This document shows, in pieces, positions 6,703 through 38,165 of a stretch of DNA of 64,000 bases. Position numbers and translations under genes: made by a program. The notes beneath the pieces were generated by a model that saw only the letters and a program-made list of their open reading frames with translations, was not told the origin of the DNA and did no database searches. Source of the stretch: a virus; IMG/VR virus record IMGVR_UViG_3300046820_000088, positions 38,424-102,423 of that record; one strand, written 5' to 3'. Within the stretch, counting starts at the first letter, position 1. Each line of letters starts with the position of its first letter.

Positions 6703-7874
6703 TTGTATTTTTTAATAAGTTCGCCGAACTCTTTGAATGTTTCGTAATAGTTTTCTTTTCGATAAGCATCATGTATATCGATCTGTTCTTTGAACTTATT
6801 CCAACGCCAGTCTGTAAATGTCCCGTCTTGAACAAACTTTATAATACCGGGAATCTGATGCCATTCTCTTTCAAACTTTTTATCGATGCTTTCTAGTTTT
6901 TTACATATTGCTTCTTTTATCTCATCTGGAAAGATATTAGAACAATAGTAGTCTGGATAGTGTACAAGATTTAGATATATATGCCAGTTTTCTTTTTCAA
7001 AGAATTCTAAAAACTCAGGCACATAGTAGACGTTCAATGCACTGATGGTATGACATATTCCGAATAAAATATTGTCTCGACCTTTAGCCCATTCTCTAGC
7101 TTTTTGCATATTTGCATATACTTCGTTCCACTTTGCAGGATGTCTCATAAATTCAAACTGTAGACCAATACCATCGATGCTGAAGCCAATATCGACAAAC
7201 TTGAAATGATCAAACAACTTAATATGTTCTTCATTCCATTGAGTTCCGTTGGTATTGTAGTGTAGAGTTTGATTCTTGCTCCAGCCGTTAGCTACAGACT
7301 TTTCAATAAACTCCCACTGCTGTTTTATAAGCCAAGGTTCTCCTCCGTAGAAATCTATTTGAATAACATCTTTACCGATGTCCTCTATTTCTGACCACAG
7401 CTTGCTTTCTTTTTCCCAGCTATCGTTATATATTTTAGCATTGATGAGATATTCTTTCTTTGGTAGCTTAACACCTTCGATCATTGTGTCGTAATATTCG
7501 TTAAGCCATAGGCTGCTGCTATATGGGTGACAAGTTCTGCATTTAATATTGCAGGTGTTGCCCATGTTTAGTTCTAGTGTTTTAATACCGTCTGTTTCTG
7601 CAAAGTCAAACTTTGCATTGTCTCGGATTCGTTTACTATCACGCCCGGCATCTTCTTCGTTCCAGCACTTAATACACGCAGGATGTCTTTCACCTTTTTT
7701 AAACGCCTCCCTAACATCTTCCATATAGGGATCTTTCCATAACTCTGTTAGTGTATGATCAACGACTCTATTTTTAGATGATCCGTCAATCATACAACAG
7801 TGTTTTATAGACCCCGTTGAATTTATGCTAAGATTATGAAATGCATTGACACAATAAAACTTTTTATTTTCCAT
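6699..7874 (-). CDS. radical SAM protein with N-terminal twitch domain
   Basis: CNIKCRTC, GGEP, SIDG; N-term CVNAF...KHCC...CIKC; start moved to MENKK. Confidence 0.9.
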   Translation of the reverse strand: MENKKFYCVNAFHNLSINSTGSIKHCCMIDGSSKNRVVDHTLTELWKDPYMEDVREAFKKGERHPACIKCWNEEDAGRDSKRIRDNAKFDFAETDGIKTLELNMGNTCNIKCRTCHPYSSSLWLNEYYDTMIEGVKLPKKEYLINAKIYNDSWEKESKLWSEIEDIGKDVIQIDFYGGEPWLIKQQWEFIEKSVANGWSKNQTLHYNTNGTQWNEEHIKLFDHFKFVDIGFSIDGIGLQFEFMRHPAKWNEVYANMQKAREWAKGRDNILFGICHTISALNVYYVPEFLEFFEKENWHIYLNLVHYPDYYCSNIFPDEIKEAICKKLESIDKKFEREWHQIPGIIKFVQDGTFTDWRWNKFKEQIDIHDAYRKENYYETFKEFGELIKKYK

Positions 7875-9258: not shown

Positions 9259-10877
9259 TATTTTCCTAGATAGATATTTGGAAATGCTTTTTTAAAATCT
9301 GTTCCTCTTCGTTGATCGTGTTGTACAAAAAACTCAGATAGATTTTGAATATTAGTTTCTCTTATTTCAGCGGTGTATTTATTTTCTTCTATTAGCGCGA
9401 TGTTTCTTTTCAACTTCTCAACCTCGTAGGGTTTAAATCCAGTTAAAGATTTTTGATATATGTTTTCGTTGCAGTGTGTTTCCATCCATGTAAGTACTCC
9501 TTTCAAATGCTCTATATCTTTATCAGTAGCATTAAAAATATTAAGCCATTGGGGATTTCTTAATACTGGAATATCAAACCATACTCGTTGAAATGGTCTT
9601 ATTTTATATTTCATTTGAGCTAATACTGACCATTCTTTTCTCAACTGAAGAATCATTTCTAAGTATTCTTTTATATTAGGTATACTTAAAAGATTGAATG
9701 TATTGATAAAACTCACGCTGGTATTTCTGGTCTTACTTAAGAATGTTCTAGTATTTGTCAACATTCTATCAAAGTCAAGACCATTGCGTATATATTCGGC
9801 CTGCTCGCCTACGCTATCAACACTTACATAAAGTGTAAAATGTTTACAGGCTTTATCATTGTATTTGTAAAGATAAGTGAAGCTACCATCTTCAAGAGCG
9901 TGACCTATTACTGGAAATGTTTGAGGAATATCGAATCGTTCAATACTAGGAAGATCGCTGTTGTGATATTCTTTAGAGTCTTTACCGATGATAAAATGCT
10001 TCCACGAAGTCCAATCGCTTCCGTCTTTAGGATCAGGAACATAGCATTCTGCAGAATGTTCTACAGTATCTAATGCTTTAACTTTATCTACAAACTTATC
10101 AAACAGTTCCTGCTTCGGAGGGCACATGTTACTAGTAATGCTTAATTCTAGATTTTTATTAGGATTATCTTTTACGTAGTCTAGAACCTTAAAGGTATTT
10201 GCATCTAGCAAAGGTTCGCCGCCAGTCATGCGAAATACTTTGAGATTGGCGTATATGTCCGGCCACCATTTCCAGAAAGCTTCAACATAGGGATTATCTT
10301 TGTTTGCAAGACCGATTGGCATCAATCCAACATTTTTTAGAACAGCAATATTATTGTGTTCTTCTTTTCCTATGTTATAGGGACCGTATATTTCGATTTC
10401 GTTTTGCCATTCACTACTTAGGTGAGGACTACAGTAACTACATTTAAAGTTACATGTTTGATTGAAGTTTACTTCAACGTAAGTTGGCTTGACGTTAAAG
10501 TCAAACGGCTGACTGACAATCTCGTCGATTTTATCAACAGCCCAATGTTCGCTACTTCTGTAATATCTATCGCTAACGTGCCCGGCATCTTCAATCTTCC
10601 AGCAGTAATCACACCCTGTAGGTCGTTGACCTTCGAGCATCATTTTTCGTTCTTCGAACTTTTGATAGGTATTATGTAATGCACCAGGATCTAACTTTAG
10701 CTGATCTAAGTTAATCTGATGTGTGGGAGGGTGATAGCAACTATGTGTGCGACCATTAGTTAGATGCAAACTAACTTGAAGCCATTTGGCCGCACAGAAG
10801 CTCGGGCTTATACTGTCTATATGAGATTTTGATGAATCAAAACCTTTAACGTAAAAGTTGACTTTTTTTGTTTCCAC
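9258..10877 (-). CDS. radical SAM protein with N-terminal twitch-like domain (paralog of 7864-9258)
   Basis: CNFKCSYC, TGGEPL, SVDS; N-term CAAKW...HSCYH...CDYCW. Confidence 0.9.
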   Translation of the reverse strand: METKKVNFYVKGFDSSKSHIDSISPSFCAAKWLQVSLHLTNGRTHSCYHPPTHQINLDQLKLDPGALHNTYQKFEERKMMLEGQRPTGCDYCWKIEDAGHVSDRYYRSSEHWAVDKIDEIVSQPFDFNVKPTYVEVNFNQTCNFKCSYCSPHLSSEWQNEIEIYGPYNIGKEEHNNIAVLKNVGLMPIGLANKDNPYVEAFWKWWPDIYANLKVFRMTGGEPLLDANTFKVLDYVKDNPNKNLELSITSNMCPPKQELFDKFVDKVKALDTVEHSAECYVPDPKDGSDWTSWKHFIIGKDSKEYHNSDLPSIERFDIPQTFPVIGHALEDGSFTYLYKYNDKACKHFTLYVSVDSVGEQAEYIRNGLDFDRMLTNTRTFLSKTRNTSVSFINTFNLLSIPNIKEYLEMILQLRKEWSVLAQMKYKIRPFQRVWFDIPVLRNPQWLNIFNATDKDIEHLKGVLTWMETHCNENIYQKSLTGFKPYEVEKLKRNIALIEENKYTAEIRETNIQNLSEFFVQHDQRRGTDFKKAFPNIYLGK

Positions 10878-12345: not shown

Positions 12346-12747
12346 TTAATCTTGAGACGATTCTTGGTTTAATCGCTTGGATAATGCTTTGTTGTAGCCC
12401 ATTTTCCGTATATCTCCTGAAAACAGATATAACTCAAATGCTGCACGTTCTTTCATTACAGTGATAGATTTCTTTGTGATGTAAAAAGGGGATTCGATAT
12501 GTTGATCTAACCATACCAAGACTTGTGGAGTTATTCCAAAATCTGGAGGAAAGTCAACTTTGTATGTTTTTATTTTAGCATACTTTTCAATAAACTCCAA
12601 ACATTGATCAGTCATTCGGAGTCCGCCGCTGTGCTTGTCTCTGATGTTCCACCACCAAACGGCTTTGTATTTCTTTCTTAACTCTTCATTAGCTTCAATA
12701 CCAGCAGCTTTCAAAAAAACTGAAGTATAAGCATCTTTAAGTTCCAT
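12346..12747 (-). CDS. hypothetical phage protein
   Basis: Abuts the upstream gene; GGLRMT motif. Confidence 0.75.
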   Translation of the reverse strand: MELKDAYTSVFLKAAGIEANEELRKKYKAVWWWNIRDKHSGGLRMTDQCLEFIEKYAKIKTYKVDFPPDFGITPQVLVWLDQHIESPFYITKKSITVMKERAAFELYLFSGDIRKMGYNKALSKRLNQESSQD

Positions 12748-13032
12748 TTACTTAATTTCTTCACCTTGTGTCAACTTATATACTGCAAAATCATTAGTCT
12801 TAAACAGTTTGTTTAGTTTTTTGGCTAGATTATGAGCATGGCCTGGATTCGAAAAGCTGACCTTTTTATATTTTGGTCCAGGATAACTAGCAACTAAACT
12901 ACCACTTTTTAAATTAAATGGTTGCCCTTTATAAAAAACAGCCCAGATGGCTTCGCTTTCAAGGATCTGTTCGATCTTGAAGTTTTCCTTGTTAGCATAT
13001 TCGAGAATCACTCGAGGTTTTGGTCGACTCAT
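12748..13032 (-). CDS. hypothetical phage protein
   Basis: MSRPKP...YPGPKYKKVSFSNPGHA. Confidence 0.75.
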   Translation of the reverse strand: MSRPKPRVILEYANKENFKIEQILESEAIWAVFYKGQPFNLKSGSLVASYPGPKYKKVSFSNPGHAHNLAKKLNKLFKTNDFAVYKLTQGEEIK

Positions 13033-13061
13033 ATATACGTGTTCCTAATTAACCACGTATA

Positions 13062-13069
13062 TATTTATC
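13062..13069 (-). promoter_or_regulatory. late promoter-like GATAAATA
   Basis: Intergenic TAAATA motif upstream of ORF 13032. Confidence 0.55.
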
Positions 13070-13072
13070 TTT

Positions 13073-13321
13073 TTAGAACGCCCCGCCGTCGAACTTAACT
13101 TCTACACTAGATGTAGATGCTTTTATTTCGGACAACATTTGATGTATCTCTTGGACTGTCTTACCAAGTTTAGATGTCATAATAGCTAATTCATTAGTAA
13201 GATCTCTTGCCTCTTGAATAGATATTCGAATATCTTTCTGTTGGGACTTTTCGGCAGCATTTACTCGTTGAATGAGTTTTTCAACACTGGGTAGATTGTT
13301 TGGCAGATTACTTTGAGACAT
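13073..13321 (-). CDS. hypothetical phage protein (coiled coil)
   Basis: Operon packing. Confidence 0.7.
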   Translation of the reverse strand: MSQSNLPNNLPSVEKLIQRVNAAEKSQQKDIRISIQEARDLTNELAIMTSKLGKTVQEIHQMLSEIKASTSSVEVKFDGGAF

Positions 13322-24622: not shown

Positions 24623-27289
24623 TTACTCAAAGTCGAATAGTTTGTTAAATGTGTTATCACTTCTAGTAGAAGCAATATCCCATTCCAGCACACCGATTAA
24701 GTTTTCTAACTTTTCGTCGATAACTGTAGTTTCCATTAGGCCATCGTCGAATGGTAAGTCCTTAAACCATTGCGGTAATCGCAACTCGTCTACTGGATAG
24801 GCCACTGACGTATAGGCCATCGGGTTATCTTTGAGTTTACAGACAATAACTTTTGCACCGTCTGTAATGTTCATTGAATACTTGTCGTCCATCATACGCT
24901 TTAAAGTGTTCCAGTTAAGGCTTGCACGAACATGCCCTGGCATATTTGCCTTACCTGCTTTCTTCTCTTTATCGCGATACTGAGAAATATTGTTAGCACG
25001 TTTAGGACTACCTTTCTCCCAGCCCGGGCGAGTCTTAAACTCTGTTCGGAAGTTAGTGATGTATTCTAAGACAACTTCTTTCTCAACACCGTTTAGGACC
25101 TGTGTTAATACTTCGCTTAAAAAGTCTTGGATAACAACCGGGGTATCTGAGCGCTTGAGGTCCAACCCCATCGCTTTAATCTTTCCTGGCTTTCCGTCAA
25201 TGTCTGATCTCTTTCCTTCTTTGTCGTAGTAAAGAACTGCATATCTCTTCTTAGTAATAAACAAACCTTTTGATGCGACAATTTCTCGTCCTGCTTTGAT
25301 AACTTCTCCTCTGCTTTTTGGGCAGTGGAAAGTGTCCTGCATGAATTTTGGAAATGTTCCATTAACTTCTTCTCCTATGGTATCGTAAAGTTCAATAACT
25401 GCTTCTTTGCTCCACGGAATAAGACCTTTATCAATGTCTTTCTTCAGGGTACTGTATGCACTAAAATAACAAGAGTCAGTGTCACCATAAATGATAGACT
25501 TACCTCTGTAATCATAGTCGCCTGTAATGATTTCATTTACTTTACCTGCCATGTGTTTAACAATCTGGCGACCGGTAAGAGTTGTACTTTGTCCAATGCG
25601 GTTATCGAAAAATCTACAACCGGGGTTAAGAATAGCACCATACAAGCTGTTCAAGTTAATCTTCTTGACCAGTTGTCGCTTGTCCCAGTATTCTTCTTCA
25701 ATTTTATTTCCTGCTTTGATACATTCTTTAAGTTTAGCCTGCATCTCTTTACGTTCAGCATACCAACGCTTTAACAGTCCAGGAATAATACCTTCTTTTT
25801 CGTAGGTAAAAATAGTGCCGTTAGCACTGAGCATCCAAGGTTGATTACTATCAAAGATTAGATCGTAGATTTGTGCTCCACTAAGTGTATCATTTCCGCC
25901 ATCTTCCCAGTCAATAGTAATCTCACGCCCAACTTCACGTGCCATTACACTTTCGTATTCGTCGCTACCAAATCTACCTTCCCATGAACTTGCAAATGAT
26001 TTGCCTTTGGCAATTTCTGCTTCAATAGACGCCTTGGTTCCGTCTTGACGTAACTGTCCAACAATAGTCTCTGGCCCCATGTTCAAGGCACGAATCGCAC
26101 TAGGATACAGCGAGTTAATATCTAGTGAACCGATCCATTCGTGAATGCCTTTCTTGGGATATGCAACATACGCACCCGCAGCCTGTGTATCTAGTCCATC
26201 GCGATTTACACGGTTAGGAACAATAAATCCACGTCTGTGTGCTTCGTTAATAATCGCCTGTTCAGTAACAGCCACTGCACCCATTGTGGTCTGTAGAAGC
26301 ACTGTGTTTTCATGAGCAATGCTGTTAGCAAGGTCAATAAACTTTAGTTTTTTATCTAGTTTATCTAACAGCGCACAATCCTGTCTGTTGTACTCAATGA
26401 ACTTGCGGAAGTCGTTGTTGTAAAGCTGATCCAATGTACCTTCGTACACAGTCTTGCTTTCGCCAACCTCCATTTCTCCAATGGCATCCAGTCGGTATGT
26501 GTGTCGTTCTTCATAGGTGTATTTGCGGTACAGCTCGAGACTGTCTAGATGAACACGACCAACCAGATCGTAAGTAACAGCGGCTTTTCCATATTTTTCG
26601 TATTCTCTCTTTTTAGGAAACTGATTCCACAAGCAGAATCTGCGAGTATCTTCTTTGCTCAGCACCTTAACAACGCGATTAACTGTATAGGGAATATCGA
26701 AACCTTCGCTGTTCCACCCACTTAGAATATCTGCTTCTTCGATCAAGTTTAAAAACGTGTCTAGCATGTCCCCTTCATTGTCGAATAACATTGTATTAGG
26801 AAACTCGGCAACAGCTTTAGTTGCTTCTTCCATGCTCATAGTTTTTGGAGGAATCGCAAGACACACAAGGGTGTCTAACCATTGCAGATGAACCGCGATC
26901 GCAGTAATGGGCATAAATGGATCGTCTGGCGATGCATAGCCACGTTCTGGATCAAAGTCCACCTCAATATCAAAAAATGCTACATTTAGTTTCGGAGCAT
27001 CGATATTAAGATAGTTGTCTTCAAGACAGCGATAGATGGGGTTTATGTCACTTTCAAACAGTCGTTTGTTTGAGTTGATTGCAAGTTCTTTGCGATGTTC
27101 TTTAAGATTCTTAGATGTTACTCTAGTTAAAGTTTCGCCTTTGATACTTTGGAACTTGCCTCTGGGGTCGGGATAATAAAATATATGACGGGCTGGATAT
27201 TCTTTATAGTGTCTTTGACCTTTGTTATCTCGCTCGACAACATTGATCATATCCTGCTCTCGGTCATAGAAAGCGTCTACGTAACTCAT
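24623..27289 (-). CDS. family B DNA polymerase (T4 gp43-like)
   Basis: ExoI FDIEV, GWNSEGFDIPY, DINSLYPS, KKINLNSLYG, YGDTDS, KKRYA; AGGAG RBS before MSYVDA. Confidence 0.96.
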   Translation of the reverse strand: MSYVDAFYDREQDMINVVERDNKGQRHYKEYPARHIFYYPDPRGKFQSIKGETLTRVTSKNLKEHRKELAINSNKRLFESDINPIYRCLEDNYLNIDAPKLNVAFFDIEVDFDPERGYASPDDPFMPITAIAVHLQWLDTLVCLAIPPKTMSMEEATKAVAEFPNTMLFDNEGDMLDTFLNLIEEADILSGWNSEGFDIPYTVNRVVKVLSKEDTRRFCLWNQFPKKREYEKYGKAAVTYDLVGRVHLDSLELYRKYTYEERHTYRLDAIGEMEVGESKTVYEGTLDQLYNNDFRKFIEYNRQDCALLDKLDKKLKFIDLANSIAHENTVLLQTTMGAVAVTEQAIINEAHRRGFIVPNRVNRDGLDTQAAGAYVAYPKKGIHEWIGSLDINSLYPSAIRALNMGPETIVGQLRQDGTKASIEAEIAKGKSFASSWEGRFGSDEYESVMAREVGREITIDWEDGGNDTLSGAQIYDLIFDSNQPWMLSANGTIFTYEKEGIIPGLLKRWYAERKEMQAKLKECIKAGNKIEEEYWDKRQLVKKINLNSLYGAILNPGCRFFDNRIGQSTTLTGRQIVKHMAGKVNEIITGDYDYRGKSIIYGDTDSCYFSAYSTLKKDIDKGLIPWSKEAVIELYDTIGEEVNGTFPKFMQDTFHCPKSRGEVIKAGREIVASKGLFITKKRYAVLYYDKEGKRSDIDGKPGKIKAMGLDLKRSDTPVVIQDFLSEVLTQVLNGVEKEVVLEYITNFRTEFKTRPGWEKGSPKRANNISQYRDKEKKAGKANMPGHVRASLNWNTLKRMMDDKYSMNITDGAKVIVCKLKDNPMAYTSVAYPVDELRLPQWFKDLPFDDGLMETTVIDEKLENLIGVLEWDIASTRSDNTFNKLFDFE

Positions 27290-27300
27290 TTTTCTCCTAA

Positions 27301-27347
27301 TGTCATTTGTGGCTGACAAACACCTATATTGCGGCTTATGGCCCGCC
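27301..27347 (-). promoter_or_regulatory. structured polB leader (hairpins next to the RBS)
   Basis: TGTCA-GCCACAAA-TGACA immediately before TTAGGAG; second GCGG-N8-CCGC hairpin. Confidence 0.45.
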
Positions 27348-27356
27348 GACCTTCTC

Positions 27357-27647
27357 TTAGATATTTAGTAACCGTATATAGCCTATAAGATCGATAGTGA
27401 CTAATAAAATATAGTTAGCCACCATGCCTGTACTTTTTCGAGTCCAAGCGGCCCACCCAAAAATAGCACATTGAGTAATAAAGATCGGATACAACCATAT
27501 AAACAGTGGATCTGTGGCACCGGCTGCTAAAACAAGAGAGCATGTTAGACTCATAAACCAGGCAGCAATTTCTAGAATGAACCGAAGAGGCCATTCTTTG
27601 AAATCGTGATGTGCCCAGTTATAGACACCTTTAAAGAAGTTAATCAT
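27357..27647 (-). CDS. small multi-pass membrane protein
   Basis: Three hydrophobic segments. Confidence 0.75.
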   Translation of the reverse strand: MINFFKGVYNWAHHDFKEWPLRFILEIAAWFMSLTCSLVLAAGATDPLFIWLYPIFITQCAIFGWAAWTRKSTGMVANYILLVTIDLIGYIRLLNI

Positions 27648-27904
27648 TCGGGTAGACGCTTAGTAACTCCGAGGATCATTTCGATTTCATCCCATTCTTC
27701 TTCATGAGCCTTCCAGTTATCTTTATGTGCAATACGAATTGCTTTATTAATAATGCTAGGCTTAACCTGTAGCTCTTCTGCTACTGCTTTTACAGTTTCT
27801 TTAAGACCTTCTTGCAGATCTTCAACTTCTCGCAATACATTTGATCCTTCGTTGATAAGTCTCTCTAGTTTTGCTTTTTCTTCTGGTCCGTACATTTTAG
27901 ACAT
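27644..27904 (-). CDS. T4 DsbA-like dsDNA-binding protein
   Basis: LKETVKAVAEELQVKPSIINKAIRIAHK helical pattern; AGGAG RBS. Confidence 0.65.
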   Translation of the reverse strand: MSKMYGPEEKAKLERLINEGSNVLREVEDLQEGLKETVKAVAEELQVKPSIINKAIRIAHKDNWKAHEEEWDEIEMILGVTKRLPE

Positions 27905-27925: not shown

Positions 27926-27954
27926 ATTATACAGGGATAAAAAAAGCCGGTCAA
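27926..27954 (-). promoter_or_regulatory. sigma70 promoter TTGACC-N17-TATAAT
   Basis: Near-consensus hexamers with 17-nt spacer; drives dsbA-polB. Confidence 0.8.
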
Positions 27955-27971
27955 CTTAGTTGCCGGCTTTT
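27939..27971 (-). terminator. intrinsic terminator
   Basis: AAAAGCCGG...CCGGCTTTTTTT stem with U-tract after ORF 27989. Confidence 0.85.
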
Positions 27972-27988
27972 GATAGTAAATGGTAATA

Positions 27989-29002
27989 TTACTTTTTAGA
28001 TTCGCTTAGTACGTCAAACATTTCAAACTGACCACCCATGCGCTCGTATACCATACCTGCATAGACTTCTGCCTTCATGCTTTCTGTAAACTTGCTTTGA
28101 GCAACTCTTGTGGCCCAGTCAAACAAATCTTTGTCTAATGGATCGATAGCTTGTTGTCCGCCGCTTTCTACAACTAACTTCATCATTTCTTTAAAAGTTA
28201 GTTTTTGTTCAACACTTTCTTTAACTGGACGCTTCTTGCCCTTTGGCATCATTTTGCTTTCGTCTTTTTTCTTTTCCCCACCTAGTACCTTGTCGCGTCC
28301 AGTGAAGTAATCGTAATCGTCTTTATCATTTCCACTAGATGGCATATTTTTGCCTTTGTTAGCCGCGTGGAACGCAGCATTCTTCTCGGCAGTTGTTGCT
28401 GGCTTCTTCTTTCCTAGACCAACGGCATTCTTTACAGTGTCTATAACACCTTCAGTTTTCTTGCCGCCAACGGCCTTACTAACTGCGGCACGACGATTCT
28501 TTAGATAGTCGTCCGTCTTATCTTTCTTACCATCGTTGTTAACATCGTCGTCTTCTTTGCCAACTGGATCCATTGCTTCTTCCATTTTCTTTTTCTTGGC
28601 ATCGGCTTTTTTCTTGTCTTCTTTTTCAGTTTTCTTAGCTTCGACCATCTTCATGAACTTGGACTTAAACTGTGGCTCAATACTTTCGTCTTTCTTTTTG
28701 GCTTTCTTTTCTTCAGAATCAGCTTCGTCGCCTTTGTACTTGTCGCCCTTGACAGCCATACCAGGATGCTTTTTACCTGACTTATCGGTCCAAGGCTTGT
28801 CTGTTTTTTCAGCAGCTTCGTCTACTTTTTCTTCTGCTTCTGCTTTCTTTTTAGCTTCAGCAACATATGTAGAAGCTCCGCTAAGAACACGTAACTGTGC
28901 GTCTTCGTTTAGTTGAACAGCTTGCGGTAGCTTTGGAGCAGCTGGAGTAGCAACTGGCGGTTCCATGCTATCTAGTTTATTGAGTAGTGATTTGAAGTCC
29001 AT
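27989..29002 (-). CDS. charged low-complexity protein, probable internal head/scaffold-type protein
   Basis: K/E/D-rich; many hydrophobic-x-E sites (LNE, VDE, MEE, VKE, LSE); late promoter upstream. Confidence 0.7.
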
Positions 29003-29034
29003 TTTAAATTCCTTGATCCTTAAGGTTCATATTA

Positions 29035-29042
29035 TATTTATC
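29035..29042 (-). promoter_or_regulatory. late promoter-like GATAAATA
   Basis: TAAATA upstream of ORF 29002. Confidence 0.55.
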
Positions 29043-29283
29043 TTTTGAGTGCTACACCTGCACCAAATAAACTGACATTAGAATCTAATGCGTTTGTACC
29101 TGGTTTTTGCATTACTGGTTTTGGTTGCGGAGGAGATTTAGTTCCTGATTTTCCAGGACTTCCTATGTAGCTTTTCTTTCCTCTAGCAGGACCCGGGCTT
29201 AGGTGCGGATTAGGAACAGTAGCAATATTACCTGCTGAAGTTGCTCCTGCGCTAGCGGTTTCGAATAGTTCGTGTAATCTCAT
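29038..29283 (-). CDS. small basic putative internal virion protein
   Basis: MRLHELFE N-terminus; ETASAGATSAGNIA. Confidence 0.7.
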   Translation of the reverse strand: MRLHELFETASAGATSAGNIATVPNPHLSPGPARGKKSYIGSPGKSGTKSPPQPKPVMQKPGTNALDSNVSLFGAGVALKR

Positions 29284-29288
29284 GCTAA

Positions 29289-29296
29289 TATTTATC
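29289..29296 (-). promoter_or_regulatory. late promoter-like GATAAATA (leaderless)
   Basis: 5 nt upstream of ATG 29283, no SD. Confidence 0.55.
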
Positions 29297-30143
29297 GTAT
29301 TGCAACTTTAAAATCTTGGAACTTGTCTTGTCGTTGGTCCAAATGTTTTAATCCAGGATTAATGCCTTTTGTAACATCTTTGACATTATCAAAGTTTTTA
29401 ACTTTATTGCTGACTCTGTTTTGCCAGAACCAAACTGATGTTTTAGCGGCAATTTCTGGCCTTTCAACAAGTTCTGGATTTTGGACTAATCTGTTATCGC
29501 CAAATAAGGCTTTAGATGCCTCGGCATAGTTGTATTTGCCTGTTAGTTGAATGTAACCCCTACCAGAATATCTTGCTCCGTCGCCGGGCTTAGTATTACC
29601 TAATCGTTTGGCTTTTGCTGGAGCAAATCTAATATCGTATTTTTTAAAGTCTAGTTTGCCCCCTATTTCTTTCATGTGTTTGAAATCCATAGTTTCGTGA
29701 GCACACTGACTTAAGAAGGCTGCAAGTTCTTGCCCTTTTATTCCTGCTTTCTCTGCTGTTTTTCTTAACAAAACTTCGTGCGGATTGCCTGTTACAGATT
29801 TTTCTATTTCTTTTTTACTAATCTGTTTTAAGGGATCAACTTTCTTAACGTCTTGTTTAACTTGTTGAACAACGGCTGGTTTTTCTGTAGGTTTCTTTTT
29901 GGCTGCTTCTGCATCTCCAGAAGCTCCTAGTGCGGCTGCACCCATAGCAGCACCTGCTACCCAATCTTTCCAACCTTCTTGTTCGATACTTTCGCTTCCG
30001 CCTTCCCCGACAGATTCCCCGCCATCACCACTATATCCAGCATAGTATCCGTATCCGCCGTAAGGACCTGGACCATATGCTGCCCAACGAGGTTTACGTT
30101 TCTTTTTTCTTTTTCTTTCTGAAACAAACTCGTGAGCTCTCAT
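29292..30143 (-). CDS. GH19 (chitinase/lysozyme-like) hydrolase with capsid-targeting-like N-terminus
   Basis: AAFLSQCAHET, GDGARYSGRGYIQLTGKYNY; N-term MRAHEFVSE. Confidence 0.85.
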   Translation of the reverse strand: MRAHEFVSERKRKKKRKPRWAAYGPGPYGGYGYYAGYSGDGGESVGEGGSESIEQEGWKDWVAGAAMGAAALGASGDAEAAKKKPTEKPAVVQQVKQDVKKVDPLKQISKKEIEKSVTGNPHEVLLRKTAEKAGIKGQELAAFLSQCAHETMDFKHMKEIGGKLDFKKYDIRFAPAKAKRLGNTKPGDGARYSGRGYIQLTGKYNYAEASKALFGDNRLVQNPELVERPEIAAKTSVWFWQNRVSNKVKNFDNVKDVTKGINPGLKHLDQRQDKFQDFKVAIR

Positions 30144-30334
30144 TTCTTTTTACCTGATTTCATGTTTGCACACCAGTGTGCCATGCGTGCTTTTTCACCA
30201 GAGCTATTTTTAGCAGTTTTTCTTAGACTACTAACGCTAGCCTTACAATTTACTCCACTGCGTTTGGCCAAACCTTTGCGACCTGGCTTTTTGCCGTCAG
30301 CAAAGTTTTCGATGATAAACTCGCTTGCTCTCAT
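30140..30334 (-). CDS. small basic putative internal virion protein
   Basis: MRASEFIIE N-terminus; ATGA overlaps. Confidence 0.7.
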   Translation of the reverse strand: MRASEFIIENFADGKKPGRKGLAKRSGVNCKASVSSLRKTAKNSSGEKARMAHWCANMKSGKKK

Positions 30335-30408
30335 ACTGGACTGTAGGGGTTGCGAAAACGATCATACCCGTCGTCTTCTGGATATACTGGATAATCATCT
30401 GGACCCAT
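30331..30408 (-). CDS. 25-aa micro-ORF MGPDDYPVYPEDDGYDRFRNPYSPV
   Basis: GGAG RBS; fills the gap; TGA overlaps next ATG. Confidence 0.5.
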   Translation of the reverse strand: MGPDDYPVYPEDDGYDRFRNPYSPV

Positions 30409-30691
30409 ATTTCTTCTCCCCAGTAAGGTAAGGCTTACTAAACCATAACTGAAACCATTCCGGAGTTCCGGGTTTGATATTATGCTCTTTCTCGATCTTT
30501 TGGTTTTCCATTCCAGTAACACTGATATTGCTACCTTGATCCACTCGATATTCGTGTAGTCTAGCTGAATGCCCTAGACCTGCGAGATATTGAATAGATT
30601 TTAATTCGTAGATAGGATCACTTGGATCAAGGACACAGTCATCTGGGCTGTCTTGATTTAAGTTTTCAGTAGTGATCTTATATTGCTTCAT
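30395..30691 (-). CDS. hypothetical protein
   Basis: TAATG coupling; IKPGTPEWFQLWF motif. Confidence 0.7.
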   Translation of the reverse strand: MKQYKITTENLNQDSPDDCVLDPSDPIYELKSIQYLAGLGHSARLHEYRVDQGSNISVTGMENQKIEKEHNIKPGTPEWFQLWFSKPYLTGEKKYGSR

Positions 30692-31320
30692 TACATTCCA
30701 CCGCCGACTAGTTTTCCTTTTGGATAACCTTTAGGATCTTTTCCTTTAAGTTGTCCTGCTGGACCTTCTTTCTGACCAACTTTTTTTCCTGCAAATGGAA
30801 TATCGGCAGCTTCTTCAACACTGCCAAATCTAGATTCGTATTGCTCTTCGTCTCTAGCATCATCTAGTGCATAGTTAGCAAACTTGATTAAACTTTTTAA
30901 TGTTTTTTCGATATTATAAACTGCACCATTAGCTGCTCTAATCGCTTGAACAGCTTCTTCAATAGAATCGGTCATGTCAACTTTGGCGCTATCGTCCGCA
31001 ATACTGTTAATGCCTTCCATCATAGAAGTAAGCTCGTCTTCAATAGCTTCGAACTCGTAGTGATTTTTTTGTGCTTTAAGGACGGCAGGCATTAACTGTT
31101 CTAGTTGAGCAATCATAGATTCTATTTGCTGAACTTTGCTTCCCTGAGCGGCTTCTTCAGCAACGGCTTTTTGTTTGTGTTTTGTATCGCCTTGCTTCTG
31201 TGCTTTCTTTTTATCTTTATGTGCGCCAGCGCCGCCCATCTTTGCATTTTTAGCAACAAAGTTTCTTGGTTTTGATGCGTCGATCTTTTTAGATTCTGTA
31301 AGTATTTCTATTGCTCTCAT
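30691..31320 (-). CDS. putative internal virion protein
   Basis: MRAIEILTE N-terminus; alternating basic and acidic segments. Confidence 0.7.
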   Translation of the reverse strand: MRAIEILTESKKIDASKPRNFVAKNAKMGGAGAHKDKKKAQKQGDTKHKQKAVAEEAAQGSKVQQIESMIAQLEQLMPAVLKAQKNHYEFEAIEDELTSMMEGINSIADDSAKVDMTDSIEEAVQAIRAANGAVYNIEKTLKSLIKFANYALDDARDEEQYESRFGSVEEAADIPFAGKKVGQKEGPAGQLKGKDPKGYPKGKLVGGGM

Positions 31321-31997
31321 TTTGATTTCCTTGTTTGCTTTGGACCTTTCCTAGTCTTCCATTTCTTGTCGGTTGAACACCAGTAACGTCCGTAGCCTTC
31401 TTCTACAGTGTCTTTTACACCTAGACCTTGTTTAACAGCACTAAACAGCTTTTCTGCATGTTGTCCAGCACCTGTGGATTCTTTAAACTTTTCGAAGTCG
31501 TTATTTGCAGCAGCAGATCTAGCATTACTTGCACTAACACCAGACACTCCCTCGGCACCATCTTCTCTCTCGCCGCTGGATTTAAAATCTAATACTTCAA
31601 AGTTATAAAAACCGTGGCTCTTGCCTTCTACATTATTATAGTCTTTGAGTAGTTTAGACATTTCTTCGATACGATCGCTGCCTGCAACAAATGTAGCATT
31701 TCTGTAACCTAGATCGTGTAGATGACTTGCAACTTTAAGAACAGTATTAAGACTTGCATCGTCTACAATATTTTTGGCATGTTCGGGAAACATGGACTTC
31801 ATGAATCCTATTTTAGTAGAATAGTCCAGAGGATTTTTCTTTTTGTCTTGAGTTTGACTGAGAAATATTTTGTACTCTCCGCCGATACCTTTGAGAGTAT
31901 CTAGCAATAACTTATGACCTACCGTAGGAGGATTCATTCTACCGAAGCAGAATGAAACATGAGAGTTAGAAGATTCGAAAAGTTCACTGATCCTCAT
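31317..31997 (-). CDS. HxGH-family nucleotidyl/cytidylyltransferase-like protein with capsid-targeting-like N-terminus
   Basis: FGRMNPPTVGH, VAGSDR, GVSAS; N-term MRISELFE. Confidence 0.8.
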   Translation of the reverse strand: MRISELFESSNSHVSFCFGRMNPPTVGHKLLLDTLKGIGGEYKIFLSQTQDKKKNPLDYSTKIGFMKSMFPEHAKNIVDDASLNTVLKVASHLHDLGYRNATFVAGSDRIEEMSKLLKDYNNVEGKSHGFYNFEVLDFKSSGEREDGAEGVSGVSASNARSAAANNDFEKFKESTGAGQHAEKLFSAVKQGLGVKDTVEEGYGRYWCSTDKKWKTRKGPKQTRKSK

Positions 31998-32325
31998 AGT
32001 CACCGTTTGACATATGTTTTTCTTGTTCTTCTGCGATCTTTTTCGCTAGCTCGATAAGTCCCTCTTTAGAAAACTTATTTTCTTTTTCATCTATTTCAAA
32101 TTTTGAGCAATACTGTTCTACACACTGTTCAAGAGGTCTGATATAGAGTTTAAATGCACTTGGATTACCTTTGTACTCTTTATGTTTTTTAACAGCAGGA
32201 AAGAATACATTGGTTAGAAGTTTATCATCATTGTCGATGAAAAACTTCAAATCTCCCATCCAGTCAACGTCTGATTTTTCTTCAGTTGGCGCACCGATGG
32301 GGCTAAACATTTCTCTTAATAGCAT
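31984..32325 (-). CDS. putative internal virion protein
   Basis: MLLREMF N-terminus; TAATG coupling. Confidence 0.7.
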   Translation of the reverse strand: MLLREMFSPIGAPTEEKSDVDWMGDLKFFIDNDDKLLTNVFFPAVKKHKEYKGNPSAFKLYIRPLEQCVEQYCSKFEIDEKENKFSKEGLIELAKKIAEEQEKHMSNGDYEDQ

Positions 32326-33452
32326 TACCAGCTCCTACAAGACCAGTAACGTGCTTTCCAACGTGGTCCTGGATTTTTACAGTTATGGCGAGCACGGAAA
32401 GATTTTCTACGTGCTGGATTTGATTTCTTAATACGCATTTTCTTATCGCCAAAGTTTACCTTGACAATCTTGCCGTTGGGCTTGCGTACATATACTTTTG
32501 ATTTCTTTACATCGCCTGGTAGTTTTTTACCTAGCGGAACATTCTTGCCATGATACTCGGCTTCGTCTACATTTTCGTCATAGTTGTTGGCTTTCATGTA
32601 GTCTCTAGCAGTATCGATGTAATCCATAGCCTTGGTGATTTTAGATTGAACCCACTCTGGTAAATTGTCGTCTGTATCTAAAATGTCATATAACTCTTGA
32701 GCAGCATCGTTAATGGTACGTAGATCGTCTTTGGCCATGTCGCCTTCGTTATCGTACTCTGCATAGTTTTCTGGATCTTCTGGATTCTCAGAATGATCTT
32801 CTTTCTTAAACTTGTCTTTAATTTTGCCTAGCTCTTCTTCTGAAGCACCATCACGTCCGGCCTGTGCTAGTGCAGACATGCCGTCTTTACCGTATTTCTT
32901 TTTACCTGTGTAGTATTGCAAACCACTTTCGTCAAGATCTTCGCCAATCTTTTCGCAGTCGTTTACACGTTTGCCAGCATTTTTACCTGTTCCGGGCTTT
33001 GTGCCTACTTTACGATAACCTTTCCAGCAGCTCTTTGGTCCTGCTACGCCTTCTACAAGTTCACCTTCTAAGAAACTTAATCCTTCGTTGGTTAACATTT
33101 CCATAGCTGCATCGTCTAGATCAATAACAATCCCGTCAGCAACAAATCCTACGATCTCTGTTGATATTTCTAAATCTTCAGAGAAGCTAATACCAAAGTC
33201 GTCTCCAACTACAAACGTACTTTCGTTAGCGGTATCTTTACCAGCAAGTCCTTTCTTTCCGTAGTTGATTTCGTAATCGTCGTCTGTCGGCTCCATATTG
33301 GTCTTAACTCCGCTAGGACTAACATGTTCTTTTTCTTTATCTGCAATAGCTTTTTTGATTACAGGGTCTTGGGCAGCAGGCATCTTTTTTAGATCCTGCA
33401 AGGTGGCTTCTTCTGATAGAATTTTGTCCAGTTTAGATATAATGTCTCTCAT
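32325..33452 (-). CDS. modular putative internal head polyprotein
   Basis: Small modules separated by LSE/LVE/IGE/LDE/VDE; C-term KVNFGD...RKSFRARHNC...ARYWSC domain. Confidence 0.75.
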   Translation of the reverse strand: MRDIISKLDKILSEEATLQDLKKMPAAQDPVIKKAIADKEKEHVSPSGVKTNMEPTDDDYEINYGKKGLAGKDTANESTFVVGDDFGISFSEDLEISTEIVGFVADGIVIDLDDAAMEMLTNEGLSFLEGELVEGVAGPKSCWKGYRKVGTKPGTGKNAGKRVNDCEKIGEDLDESGLQYYTGKKKYGKDGMSALAQAGRDGASEEELGKIKDKFKKEDHSENPEDPENYAEYDNEGDMAKDDLRTINDAAQELYDILDTDDNLPEWVQSKITKAMDYIDTARDYMKANNYDENVDEAEYHGKNVPLGKKLPGDVKKSKVYVRKPNGKIVKVNFGDKKMRIKKSNPARRKSFRARHNCKNPGPRWKARYWSCRSW

Positions 33453-33476: not shown

Positions 33477-33483
33477 TATTTAG
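33477..33483 (-). promoter_or_regulatory. late promoter-like CTAAATA
   Basis: Intergenic, upstream of the internal protein cluster. Confidence 0.55.
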
Positions 33484-33856: not shown

Positions 33857-34534
33857 CTATTTATCGACTAAAACATAATTATAAACTCGGCCCATAACTT
33901 CTGGGTTTCGCAGTTTCAGCAATAATAACGTTTTATCGTCCTCAACTAGCACATATCTTCTATCCCAGTTCCAATCAGTAGCCATAAACCAGTGCTGAAT
34001 AGCTGGAGTGCAGGTTATTTTATCACCTTGACCTAAAATCCATTCTAGATATTTGGTTTTGCTCTCTGGATCTTTTGCTAGTTTATGTGGTAAAAGAAAG
34101 ACCTTGTGTCGGTATTTCTTATGCGGAAACTTCTTAACCAGTATAACTTCTTCATTTTCGAGACTGTCTATAGTGTTAACTGCTGGTTCATATTGATGAA
34201 CTACTATAGATTGAAACTTTGAAGATAGCTCTAGGTAGAAATCTCGATCATTTGTATAGAAATCAACACATTTACTTTCGATTCGTTTGGTCCATGTATT
34301 AGAATCTTTGCTTAACAAGAACTCTGTAAGATCATGTATTGAATCTCGATTAAACCATGCCTTATAGTGCATAGAATAGGGTTGATAATATGCACCCGTA
34401 TTAGACAAACAAAACTTTTTAATCTCTTCAAGAGGCAGCAATCGAAAGATTCCCGCCCCTTGAATGATTAATGTTGTTTTATAAAGCCACTTATTGTAAA
34501 ACTTACGGTTAGTTACCTTCGTTTTCTGTGACAT
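33857..34534 (-). CDS. hypothetical phage protein
   Basis: Long ORF in operon. Confidence 0.75.
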   Translation of the reverse strand: MSQKTKVTNRKFYNKWLYKTTLIIQGAGIFRLLPLEEIKKFCLSNTGAYYQPYSMHYKAWFNRDSIHDLTEFLLSKDSNTWTKRIESKCVDFYTNDRDFYLELSSKFQSIVVHQYEPAVNTIDSLENEEVILVKKFPHKKYRHKVFLLPHKLAKDPESKTKYLEWILGQGDKITCTPAIQHWFMATDWNWDRRYVLVEDDKTLLLLKLRNPEVMGRVYNYVLVDK

Positions 34535-36854
34535 CAACGGTTGTTTCCTTCTCAGCATTGGCCTTCTTAAGGGCTTTACGCTCTTCTTTGGTCAACGGTT
34601 TGGGCATATCTTCTACAGTAAATGCCAGCTCGTTATTTACAACAGACACTGTAACACGACCGCCATTGACTAGATCACCAAACAATACTCGGCGGCTTAG
34701 TGGACTCTTGATGTTGTTATCGATCATTCGAGCAAGTGGTCTCGCACCCATCTTGCTGTCGTATCCTTTTTCTGATAACCATTTTAGTGCATCAGCATCA
34801 GCAACGATTTCGATGTTTTTGTCCTTGAGCTGCGAGTTAAGTTCGTTGATAAACTTTTTCACAATCTGAACAACTACCTCTTCACCCAACTTACGGAACT
34901 TGATAACAGCGTCTAAGCGATTACGAAACTCTGGTGCAAAAAACTTTTTAATAGCTTTGTCATCCTCACCGTCTTTACCTAGATCACCAAAGCCGATAGT
35001 ATTCTTTTCGTTATCGGCAGCTCCTAAGTTACTGGTCATGATCAAGATAGTGTTGCGACCATCGGCCTGCTTTCCATTTGATCCTGTTACAAAACCGTTA
35101 TCCATGAACTGCAACAAGATATTCGAAACATCTGGATGTGCTTTTTCAATCTCGTCTAACAACAGAATACTGTTAGGATGCTCTTGTAACTTTGTGATCA
35201 GTTGTCCTGCATTATCTTCGTATCCAACATAACCAGGAGGAGAACCAATCAGTTTTGCTACGCTGTGTTTTTCTTGATACTCACTCATATCGAATCTGAT
35301 TAGATTCATACCCATCTTTTCAGACAATGCACGAGCTGTTTCAGTCTTACCGCAACCTGTTGGGCCGAGGAATAAGAAACTGCCGATTGGTTTATTTGGA
35401 TGCTTCATGCCAGCTTGTGCTACAAAGATCTTATCTAGCAATGTATCTACAGCAGTATCTTGACCGTAGACAGCAGTCTTCATACCTTTTTCAAGCTCTG
35501 CAAGATTCTTAGATTCTTTCTGAGCAACAGCCTCCAACGGCATATTGATCATCTTGCTAAGTTCGTAAGTAATCTGCTCGATGTCGACAATCTGTTCAAC
35601 ACCCTCCATACCTTCTTCATCTTTGACTTTGTATCGTGCAGATGCACAGTCGATAATGTCAATAGCCTTGTCGGGCAACTTTTTATCTGCCATATATTTG
35701 ACAGATAGTTTAACTGCCTGCTCAATAGCACCGTCGGTAATCTTAACGTTATGATGTTTCTCGTAATACTTTTTAAGACCTTTGATGATCTTTACAGTCA
35801 TTTCTGAACTTGGCTCGTCAACTGTAACACGTTGGAATCGACGCATTAGAGCACGATCCTTTTCAAAGTGCTTGCGATACTCTTCCCATGTTGTTGAAGC
35901 AATCAGTTTCAGAACACCTTTTGTCAACATAGGTTTAAGCATATTGCTCATATCGTTGCTGGATTGATTGGCAGCACCTGCACCTTGCATCATATGAGCT
36001 TCGTCGATAAACAGGATGATCTTGCCTTTCTTTTCAAGTGCAGCAAGAACCGCTTTTAGACGTTCTTCAAAATCACCACGATATTTACTGCCTGCAAGCA
36101 ATGCACTAATGTCTAGTGTGTAAACTTGATGATCCTGAATAAACTTAGGAACTTTCTTTTCAAAGATTTTACGTGCAAGGCCTTCTGCGATAGCAGTTTT
36201 ACCGACACCTGGATCACCAACTAGCAATACGTTTGACTTGTTGCGACGAGCAAGTACTAGTTGAATCTTTTCTAGTTCTTCGTCACGACCGATAACTGGA
36301 TCGATCTGACGTTGTTTAGCTCTAAGACTAAGGTTAGTACAGAACTGATTCAATACTCGTTCGATTTGATTAGAGTTTGCAACTTGAGCAGGAACTTGTT
36401 CCTCGTCATCTGACTCTTCCACTTGCATATTTTCTTGGAAGTATTTGACAAACTTTTCTTTAGATAGTCCGCCTTTAGTAAGGAAGTAGTAACTAAAGCT
36501 GTTCTTTTCACTCAAGATGCTAATAATAACATCGGCGATTTCAATACGCTGTCTGCCACTAAACAGTACCTGTGTAAATGCACGATTCAATGCACGTTCG
36601 ATAGAGTTTGTTTTCTTGGGCTTTGCGCCAGAATCTGTTACAATATCTGCCAGATTATTTTTTAGATAATGATCGAGATTTGATTTAATAAAGTTAGCAT
36701 CTGCTCCGAAGCTTTCTACAAACGAGTAAGATTCTTCGTGACACATAATACTATATGTCAGATGCTCGATAGTAATGTATTCGTGCTTCAGATCTTTTGC
36801 AACACCAATGGCGTGTTCAAAGATTGAATGTAACGTGCTGCTAGGTTCGATCAT
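34509..36854 (-). CDS. clpA: ATP-dependent Clp protease ATPase subunit ClpA
   Basis: Clp N-domain, GDPGVGKT and GPTGCGKT Walker A, KYRGDFEER, GSPPGYVG, IGF loop, MGARPL. Confidence 0.93.
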   Translation of the reverse strand: MIEPSSTLHSIFEHAIGVAKDLKHEYITIEHLTYSIMCHEESYSFVESFGADANFIKSNLDHYLKNNLADIVTDSGAKPKKTNSIERALNRAFTQVLFSGRQRIEIADVIISILSEKNSFSYYFLTKGGLSKEKFVKYFQENMQVEESDDEEQVPAQVANSNQIERVLNQFCTNLSLRAKQRQIDPVIGRDEELEKIQLVLARRNKSNVLLVGDPGVGKTAIAEGLARKIFEKKVPKFIQDHQVYTLDISALLAGSKYRGDFEERLKAVLAALEKKGKIILFIDEAHMMQGAGAANQSSNDMSNMLKPMLTKGVLKLIASTTWEEYRKHFEKDRALMRRFQRVTVDEPSSEMTVKIIKGLKKYYEKHHNVKITDGAIEQAVKLSVKYMADKKLPDKAIDIIDCASARYKVKDEEGMEGVEQIVDIEQITYELSKMINMPLEAVAQKESKNLAELEKGMKTAVYGQDTAVDTLLDKIFVAQAGMKHPNKPIGSFLFLGPTGCGKTETARALSEKMGMNLIRFDMSEYQEKHSVAKLIGSPPGYVGYEDNAGQLITKLQEHPNSILLLDEIEKAHPDVSNILLQFMDNGFVTGSNGKQADGRNTILIMTSNLGAADNEKNTIGFGDLGKDGEDDKAIKKFFAPEFRNRLDAVIKFRKLGEEVVVQIVKKFINELNSQLKDKNIEIVADADALKWLSEKGYDSKMGARPLARMIDNNIKSPLSRRVLFGDLVNGGRVTVSVVNNELAFTVEDMPKPLTKEERKALKKANAEKETTVDVTENEGN

Positions 36855-37348
36855 TATTTCTTTTTCCTTAGTTTCTTCATTGCTAATTGTAACTTTAACG
36901 GTGATACTTTGTCAACAAAACACACGCCGTTAAGGTGATCTAGCTCATGCTGAAAGCACTTTGCTAGATATCCGTCTACACGAATTTCTTTGAGATTGCC
37001 CTTGCTGTCTTGATATTCAGCAACAATCCAGCTTGGCCTCTTTAGTTTTAAGTAAAGATCCGGATAGCTTAAACATCCTTCTTCATCAAGCACCTCTTCT
37101 GTGCTTGACTCTTTAATCACGGGATTGAATACAGCAAAGGGCTCTGGGAAGCCTTCAAGGTTTCGACTGCCCATTACAAAGACTCTACGAGCAATACCGA
37201 TTTGATTTGCTGCTAGTCCTATGCCTCTGTTCGTTTCCATGAATGAAATCATGTCTGCTTCTAGTTGAGCAGCATCCCCGTCTGTTTCGAAGTTCCAGGG
37301 CTCGCTAACTTCGACAAGGGTATTGTGTGGTCCTAGTTTAAAATCCAT
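36854..37348 (-). CDS. def: peptide deformylase
   Basis: GIGLAANQ, EEGCLS, QHELDHL. Confidence 0.95.
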   Translation of the reverse strand: MDFKLGPHNTLVEVSEPWNFETDGDAAQLEADMISFMETNRGIGLAANQIGIARRVFVMGSRNLEGFPEPFAVFNPVIKESSTEEVLDEEGCLSYPDLYLKLKRPSWIVAEYQDSKGNLKEIRVDGYLAKCFQHELDHLNGVCFVDKVSPLKLQLAMKKLRKKK

Positions 37349-38165
37349 CTTTTATTTTTTTGATTTGGTCTTTTTGCTCTTGTGTGAGATTCTTAGGAAT
37401 AGACACTTTAACTCTAACTAACAGATTTCCTCTCTGTCTAGTACGCATATCCGGCAAGCCTTCTCCTTTACAACTAAGGACAGTGTCTGGCTGAGTGCCT
37501 GAAGGAATAGTTATATTTAAAGTTCTCTTGTCGATGTTGTCAATCTCTATTTTAGATCCTAACAGTGCATCCCATGCAGAGATAGTAGTTTCGTATATTA
37601 AAGAACTACCTTCTCTTCTAAAAGTTCTATGAGGTCTTACAATAACATTAACAATGAGATCACCTGGGCGAAGATCGCTAATCGAATCATCCCCCATTCC
37701 TGTATATTTGATCTGTTGACCCGATTCTATTCCGGGTGGAATAGCAATGTTAACTACTTTAGTTTTACCGCCAGGGATTCCAACTTCTGCGCTGATGTCC
37801 TTGCCATTGAGTACATCTTCTAGAGTTATCTCTATATTAACACTTAGGCTTCTGTTTCTTCTAGCAGGTCTTCCAAACCCAAAGTTGCCAAAGATATCTT
37901 CGAAGTTTCCTGAGTTAAAGTGAAACTCAAATGGTCCCTGACCAAACCCATGATGACCTGGTTGTGCATTTGGATCGCCACCCATGTCAATGATACGTTT
38001 CTTTTCGGGATTTGACAGTGACTCGTATGCTGTTGAAATCTCTTTAAACTTTTGTTCATCGCCCCCACGATCGGGGTGATGTTTCATTGCAAGACTACGG
38101 TATGCCTTTTTTATTTCAGCGTCAGACGCACCTCTTTGTAAACCTAATGTAGAATAGTAATCCAT
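37338..38165 (-). CDS. dnaJ: DnaJ-class chaperone (CbpA-like, no Zn finger)
   Basis: J domain HPD, G/F region, C-terminal domain. Confidence 0.92.
   Translation of the reverse strand: MDYYSTLGLQRGASDAEIKKAYRSLAMKHHPDRGGDEQKFKEISTAYESLSNPEKKRIIDMGGDPNAQPGHHGFGQGPFEFHFNSGNFEDIFGNFGFGRPARRNRSLSVNIEITLEDVLNGKDISAEVGIPGGKTKVVNIAIPPGIESGQQIKYTGMGDDSISDLRPGDLIVNVIVRPHRTFRREGSSLIYETTISAWDALLGSKIEIDNIDKRTLNITIPSGTQPDTVLSCKGEGLPDMRTRQRGNLLVRVKVSIPKNLTQEQKDQIKKIKDGF

Follow-up and report, generated by a model that had tools for sequence, protein, structure and literature searches.

Why do proteins that are otherwise unrelated, encoded side by side in one viral gene cluster, begin with nearly the same few amino acids (aa)? 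The question is raised by nine co-oriented minus-strand genes at positions 27989-33452 of a 64,000-nucleotide stretch of viral DNA (hereafter the window) from the IMG/VR contig IMGVR_UViG_3300046820_000088 (Table 1). Six of the nine genes start with a short leader (MRLHELFE, MRAHEFVSE, MRASEFIIE, MRAIEILTE, MRISELFE, or MLLREMF) that follows the pattern M-R/L-x-x-E-hydrophobic. In phage T4, IPI, IPII, IPIII, Alt, and gp24 carry the capsid targeting sequence MKTYQEFIAE, which the prohead protease gp21 cuts off (Mullaney and Black 1996, as summarized in the reviews PMC9026906 and PMC5694885); its targeting function depends on positions 4 and 7 and its processing on positions 8 and 10 (PMC9026906). 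An initial annotation of the window proposed that the leaders have the same role. From the sequence comparisons below, we estimate a probability of about 0.7 that the leader is a T4-like capsid-targeting tag marking proteins packaged in the head. The proposal stood in all indirect tests that were run (head genes, leader core, a copy of the capsid junction, untagged homologues outside T4-like phages, and virion homologues). In its direct form, as to packaging, cleavage, and injection, it went further than these tests reach, and we infer that the proteins dock to the core, are cleaved, stay in the head, and are injected.

The open reading frames (ORFs) and their N-termini were as annotated. When the N-termini were scanned, as the annotation had proposed, no match to the motif M-[RKL]-x-x-[ED]-hydrophobic was found in the remaining ORFs of the 102-kb contig, about 100 in number (6/9 cluster genes versus 0/100 other ORFs, p = 4e-8). 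Related loci were counted over 54 IMG/VR loci containing both end genes of the cluster. There, the motif was present in 259 of 383 ORFs inside the cluster and in 1 of 894 outside (p = 4e-173), and the consensus of the leader was M-(R/K/L)-(A/L/I)-x-E-(F/I/L/M)-(F/I/L/V)-x-E, with a length of 8-9 residues. The description of the proteins as otherwise unrelated was also borne out, as no mutual similarity was found among the nine proteins after removal of their first 10 residues (best E value 0.14). The amino acids of the leader are conserved, and synonymous codons vary freely at every position (Ala is written as GCA, GCC, GCT, and GCG, and position 2 alternates among AGA, AAA, and Leu codons), indicating that selection acts on the peptide. 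By contrast, the supposed richness of the cluster in hydrophobic-x-Glu sites was rejected as a signal. The density of these sites (2.41 per 100 aa versus 1.83 in the rest of the contig) tracks the Glu content of the proteins (8.3% versus 6.1%), so it carries no information of its own.

In relatives, the leader is attached to the nucleotidyltransferase (195-818 aa, in many cases with additional fused domains), to a basic Gly/Tyr-rich module with or without a GH19 domain, to a small peptide with a capsid-like start, to the MLLxEMFSPIGAP protein, to an HAD-like protein, and to several singletons. An IscA-like gene and the small 'LAG..EF' gene are members of the cluster without the leader. The annotation had called the cassette modular, and this is true of the extra cassettes and domain fusions, which vary. 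Most cargo families, however, are conserved across the relatives, so the locus is less hypervariable than the annotation implied.

Three larger relatives with the same synteny (G001, G002, and G003; 281, 238, and 195 kb) encode a Peptidase_S77 protein, the family of T4 gp21 (85-88 bits), together with a gp23-type capsid protein. In G001, the protease gene falls within 12482-13114 (-) of locus L090. The head module of the relatives is ordered portal, small ORFs, acidic protein, protease, scaffold-like protein, and capsid protein. The scaffold-like protein (363 aa) starts with MLDIVKQLFE, and one relative has an 83-aa ORF with an MLLNEFF start between its portal and protease genes. Further tagged ORFs of G001 adjoin the head module and occur at one other place.

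The capsid protein of a relative aligns with T4 gp23 and reads YLAE/SATAGATSAGNVATL. In this alignment, YLAE/S lies a few residues downstream of the mapped T4 maturation cut (E65/A66); the cut sites are thus not exactly aligned, and the junction is predicted from the L-x-E rule. The 81-aa cargo reads ELFE/TASAGATSAGNIATV, and it agrees with residues 39-56 of the capsid protein at 13 of 18 positions (locus L090, E value 1e-5). From this match, the stretch after the leader of the 81-aa protein appears to copy the predicted mature N-terminus of the capsid protein. A similar arrangement was seen in cyanophage S-CREM2, in which gp160 (locus L111, 9343-10236), a published virion protein, matches residues 61-84 of its own capsid protein at 18 of 24 residues. 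Both the 81-aa peptide and gp160 are small tagged proteins with a copy of the capsid arm after the leader and then a basic tail; judged by this sequence likeness, such a protein may dock on the inner wall of the capsid. Copies of the capsid arm were also sought in the clusters of Melnitz, C48C1, and HTVC008M, and none was found there, so the copy is not a general feature.

The leader was then considered in light of homologues that lack it. Pelagiphages HTVC026P and Kolga and Roseobacter phage CRP-902 encode the basic C-terminal module of the 375-aa protein as a gene of its own, which starts with MAKYKG... and lacks a leader. Its counterparts in the T4-like phages C48C1 and HTVC008M are preceded, precisely where the free-standing version begins, by a T4-type tag and an L-x-E/AE(Y/F) junction, so the leaderless homologues start at the predicted cut. 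Likewise, the nucleotidyltransferase has no leader in the Rak2-like phage K64-1 and Pseudomonas phage 30-2 and carries a T4-type tag in Syn9 (MKKFSAFLSE), Melnitz, S-CREM2, and S-SCSM1. The protein in the window is 39-42% identical to its cyanophage homologues.

Published mass spectrometry data connect such tags with virions. Table 3 of the S-CREM2 study (PMC10665884) lists as virion proteins the cytidylyltransferase ORF154, the S-adenosylmethionine (SAM) hydrolase ORF6, the kinase-like ORF14, ORF13, and ORF136. We found that these proteins start with MKNFSSFLTE, MKDFDSFLEE, (V)KRFDAFLTE, MKDLHSFLTE, and MQTFSMFFSE, respectively. Measured against that table, all five S-CREM2 ORFs with a T4-type N-terminal tag are virion proteins, compared with 45 of 213 others (p = 5e-4). 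Four of the five were found by a regular expression for the T4 pattern, and ORF14, which has a GTG start, was added from a reading of its N-terminus; one further match lies 17 residues inside an ORF, and its inclusion gives p = 0.003. The NMNAT of S-SCSM1, reported as a virion protein in the virion section of PMC9602691, starts with MKSFLQFLKE. In addition, the GH19 domain in the window shows 42% identity to a portion of S-CREM2 ORF208, which is in the mass spectrometry list of virion proteins. The virion-protein sections of PMC10665884 and PMC9602691 do not tie virion association to a targeting leader, and no description of capsid-targeting leaders in cyanophages, in pelagiphages, in this jumbo lineage, or elsewhere outside T-even phages was found in the searchable literature.

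The leader-carrying system in the window is probably of the T4 type; the breadth of the pattern, the enzyme cargoes, the module chain, and the capsid-arm copies are new. The leader core E-F-I-x-E, of the general form E-aromatic-aliphatic-x-E, corresponds to E6-F7-I8-A9-E10 of T4 and ends like the (L/I)-x-E cut motif. As in T4, a short N-terminal leader is placed on otherwise unrelated proteins; the larger relatives have a protease of the gp21 family and a capsid protein of the gp23 family; late-type promoters are predicted for the genes, which are located apart from the head module; and the cargo includes small basic proteins and an enzyme, which in T4 is Alt. Unlike in T4, position 2 is Arg, and the nine genes form a single conserved operon, one of whose products strings together several modules, with cut-like sites conserved at the joints. 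The cyanophages S-CREM2 (PMC10665884) and S-SCSM1 (PMC9602691) share with the window, in what these sources report on virion proteins, a homologous nucleotidyltransferase with a late-type promoter and an N-terminal tag, as well as GH19-bearing virion proteins, although their tags (MKNFSSFLTE and MKSFLQFLKE) have the 10-residue T4 pattern. Jumbo phages of the phiKZ/SPN3US type also load many head proteins by means of N-terminal propeptides that a protease removes; these belong to another lineage, exceed 100 residues, and are cut at S/A/G-x-E (PMC5694885), whereas the leader here is short.

If the tag works as in T4, the leader would dock each protein onto the scaffolding core during prohead assembly, and a head protease of the gp21 type would cut after the Glu of the hydrophobic-x-Glu end. 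The mature proteins, namely the NMNAT-like nucleotidyltransferase, the GH19 wall hydrolase, the basic peptides, and the modules of the 375-aa protein, would remain in the head with the DNA and would probably leave it with the DNA at infection.

Several observations weigh against capsid targeting. For this phage and its lineage, the system is known from sequence alone, in which it differs from that of T4. The leader has 8-9 residues instead of 10, one residue fewer, and Ala, Leu, or Ile takes the place of T4 Tyr4. Relatives do not retain Glu14 of the 337-aa protein, the residue that ends its MDFKSL... N-terminus, which casts doubt on cleavage at that site. In the MLLxEMFSPIGAP family, neither position 8 nor position 9 is Glu, so where it would be cut, if at all, is unclear. 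The cluster lies amid replication and chaperone genes rather than beside head genes, although the same is true of the T4 ip genes. No protease or capsid gene was found on the 102-kb contig, which is a fragment. As for the virion data, the smaller virion proteome listed for S-SCSM2R is without its NMNAT, and the authors of the mass spectrometry studies, in their virion sections, allow for carry-over of abundant proteins.

The leader could also serve a purpose other than delivery to the head. One such reading is that it is the recognition tag of another phage enzyme, for example a radical-SAM/SPASM protein that modifies the tagged proteins in the manner of RiPPs (ribosomally synthesized and post-translationally modified peptides). 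Four tandem radical-SAM genes are present in the window (5455-10877), and G001 gave 19 Radical_SAM matches. However, S-CREM2 and Melnitz carry equivalent tags without a Radical_SAM match in either genome, the radical-SAM genes of the window are separated from the cluster by >20 kb, whole enzymes of 226-375 aa are among the tagged proteins, and the end of the leader resembles the predicted cleavage junction of the capsid protein itself; we regard this reading as very unlikely. Another is that the leader is a handle for the DnaJ-like/ClpA-like set of the phage (34509-38165), to be used for folding, timed degradation, or regulation and not for packaging. Clp systems recognize short N-terminal signals, and in each related locus inspected, the cluster comes after the DnaJ-like, 164-aa, and ClpA-like genes. 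This idea is quite unlikely, because Kyanoviridae clusters with the same kind of tag are not beside Clp genes and because it leaves both the capsid-junction copy and the virion mass spectrometry data unexplained.

The shared start could even be a feature of the nucleic acid, either a signal for translation initiation or coupling or a joint at which cassettes recombine. Most genes of the operon overlap or abut, which suggests translational coupling, and the content of cassettes varies between relatives. Against this, synonymous codons vary at all leader positions, upstream sequences are not conserved, and leaderless genes stand within the same operon, which makes such a signal extremely unlikely. 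It is also conceivable that the leader does target the prohead core and that the tagged proteins are helpers of assembly or scaffolding, degraded or expelled at maturation, instead of delivered cargo. The MLDIVKQLFE start of the scaffold-like protein and the MLLNEFF start of the 83-aa ORF in relatives agree with such a role, as does the fate of the T4 core proteins gp67 and gp68, which end up as fragments after cleavage (PMC5694885). Mere scaffolding is, however, an unlikely role for enzymes whose active-site motifs (HxGH and GH19) are intact, and homologues are listed among the proteins of mature virions in the cyanophage tables; we consider this reading unlikely. Taken together, the Clp handle, the nucleic-acid signal, and the pure scaffold role are less consistent than capsid targeting with the junction copy, the codon variation, and the virion data.

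The layout of the region was examined as well. The segment 27935-33482 (-) probably constitutes an operon, expressed late, whose genes encode head cargo of a T4-related jumbo phage. The annotation had placed all of the genes under TAAATA promoters, but the box precedes only the genes ending at 33452, 29283, and 29002, and the other six genes abut or overlap their upstream neighbor; this points to one operon with two internal boxes. A TAAATA promoter of its own for each gene was accordingly ruled out, with a box before only three of the nine. In the window, TAAATA is about half as frequent as expected (39 observed versus 75 ± 8). In the whole 102-kb contig, 22 of 60 copies lie ≤60 nt upstream of ORFs, among which are long ORFs of structural appearance. 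This scarcity and the concentration upstream of genes fit a T4-type late promoter as a sequence pattern, since a promoter motif is expected to be avoided inside genes. At the other end of the operon, a near-consensus sigma-70-type promoter (TTGACC, 17 nt, TATAAT) at 27954-27926 (-) would serve the next gene (27644-27904). The terminator-like hairpin overlaps this promoter (region 27926-27971 (-)), and here a late-type unit gives way to an early-type one.

Table 1. Features of the leader-carrying gene cluster and its expression signals (positions are those of the window unless stated otherwise).
Feature	Position	Strand	Remarks
Window	38,424-102,423 of the contig		Last 64 kb of the 102,423-bp IMG/VR viral contig
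TAAATA late-promoter-like box	33477..33482	-	Precedes the first gene of the operon by 24 nt
375-aa multi-module protein	32325..33452	-	First gene of the operon; 14-aa leader MRDIISKLDKILSE (MRDIISKLD start)
113-aa acidic protein	31984..32325	-	Leader MLLREMF; family in 44/54 loci, 96% with leader
226-aa HxGH nucleotidyltransferase (predicted)	31317..31997	-	Leader MRISELFE; phrog_3041, E value 1.5e-50
209-aa protein	30691..31320	-	Leader MRAIEILTE; basic DUF7230 motif, then helical region
98-aa leaderless protein	30395..30691	-	Start MKQYKITTE; small 'LAG..EF' family, 39 loci, never with leader
64-aa basic peptide	30140..30334	-	Leader MRASEFIIE; isoelectric point (pI) 10.7; from ORF and composition
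283-aa protein with GH19 hydrolase domain	29292..30143	-	Leader MRAHEFVSE; PF00182, E value 8.5e-14; phrog_181 endolysin, E value 8e-40
Internal TAAATA box	29289..29294	-	5 nt before the 81-aa gene
81-aa basic peptide	29038..29283	-	Leader MRLHELFE; pI 10.5; family in 52/54 loci, always with leader
Internal TAAATA box	29035..29040	-	32 nt before the last gene
337-aa Lys/Glu-rich protein	27989..29002	-	Start MDFKSL...; conserved last gene of the cluster
Terminator-like hairpin, then U run	27942..27971	-	Immediately follows the last stop codon; -17.1 kcal/mol, z -4.1

Among the cargo proteins, the 226-aa protein could be assigned most precisely. Its leader is read from the ATG at 31997, two codons inside a GTG ORF, because homologues show this start, and it is placed some 6 residues ahead of the first strand. 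The protein contains the motif FGRMNPPTVGH, in which the columns G27 and H28 are invariant in 30 homologues. A search of its sequence against the PDB gave nothing useful, and a fold search was needed. With an AlphaFold (AF2) model (pLDDT 82), the best Foldseek matches were NadM NMNAT, PPAT, and NaMNAT (E values 4e-5 to 1e-3, TM score about 0.5). As modeled, the protein is an HxGH nucleotidyltransferase (NMNAT/cytidylyltransferase-like) with a predicted Rossmann-like fold.

In the 375-aa protein, hydrophobic-x-Glu is conserved at residues 14 (48/48), 92, 129/134, and 297 (32/48), which are the borders of modules. Its later modules exist as separate small genes in other marine phages, two of them as neighboring genes in pelagiphage Kolga. 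The conserved cut-like joints fit, without proving, a chain that would be cut by the protease. The C-terminal module of 80 aa (residues 296-375; window 32325-32567 (-)) is very basic and nearly invariant, and it matches phrog_7595; in the ESM Atlas, only unnamed viral clusters were matched. Pelagiphages of the podo- and siphovirus types and Roseobacter phages have this module as a separate gene, and tblastn gave a match in a Nitrosopumilaceae spindle-shaped virus.

The 283-aa protein consists, in order, of the leader, a Lys/Arg patch, a Gly/Tyr-rich stretch, a hydrophobic stretch, and the GH19 domain. For the 209-aa protein, the match to PF23876 (DUF7230) had an E value of 9e-5, below the cut-off, and the ESM Atlas gave no usable match for the 113-aa protein. 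Read by eye, about residues 135-180 of the 337-aa protein hold a DPVGKED..NDG..D.YL.NRR module in common with Syn9 gp185 (locus L127, 3911-5500), whose gene adjoins the tagged nucleotidyltransferase gene of Syn9. The cluster as a whole seems to be common to the jumbo lineage and Kyanoviridae. Beyond GH19, only weak nucleotidyltransferase and DUF7230 matches were obtained for the cargo families in Pfam and NCBIfam, and PADLOC gave no hits worth the name among the cluster proteins. Across Pfam, NCBIfam, and PADLOC, no known internal-protein, anti-defense, or defense family was matched; Alt was not compared directly.

The completeness of the contig was estimated at 29% (CheckV), implying a jumbo phage of roughly 350 kb. 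Its family-B DNA polymerase (window 24623-27319 (-)) is 43-51% identical to polymerases of cultured phages, the closest being those of Sinorhizobium phage Phosso, Agrobacterium phage Atu_ph07, Vibrio phage 2.275.O, and Rak2-like coliphages. In a search for near-identical DNA among cultured phages, the region had no match, and the cluster was not found at the syntenic place in Phosso and Vibrio 2.275.O, the two that were checked. In IMG/VR, the 375-aa protein has 317 relatives, and the gene order conserved in relatives is DnaJ-like, 164 aa, ClpA-like, two small genes, the cluster, two small genes, and DNA polymerase. In the window, the ClpA-like ATPase (781 aa), the 164-aa ORF, and the DnaJ-like protein (275 aa) are encoded upstream of the cluster at 34509-38165 (-), and this trio holds the same place in all related loci inspected. 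A leaderless gene for an IscA/HesB-like iron-sulfur carrier (107 aa) stands within the cargo cluster in 44 of the 54 relatives (for example, L004 9006-9332 and L009 12715-13038, plus 42 further loci) and is missing from the window. The lineage is also unusually rich in radical-SAM enzymes, with the matches in G001 lying, for example, at 145-151 kb and 230-262 kb.

What the cargoes might do after delivery can be suggested only tentatively. An anti-defense role, which the annotation had thought likely for some of them, is doubtful. As a speculative picture, whose parts taken jointly are improbable, the operon might be a first-strike kit loaded before infection. In this picture, the head protease would cut the leaders and the joints of the 375-aa protein, freeing several DNA-binding peptides; the injected NMNAT-like enzyme would rebuild NAD+ or adenylylate a host target before phage genes are expressed, an action that could counter NAD-depleting defenses; the GH19 protein would help the DNA to cross the cell wall; and the 81-aa peptide would use its copy of the capsid arm to attach to the inner face of the capsid, as gp160 of S-CREM2 might.

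An extension of the T4 system to other phages would be expected in principle by T4 specialists. If the tag works as it does in T4, the recurrence of NMNAT-type enzymes in cyanophage virion proteomes would be explained, and a simple sequence rule would list the head-packed proteins of abundant marine T4-like and jumbo phages. Such proteins would act before any phage gene is read, and they are therefore the likeliest place for functions in counter-defense and entry. Should the first-strike picture prove true, injected effectors could be predicted from T4-type tags throughout the marine T4-like and jumbo phages.

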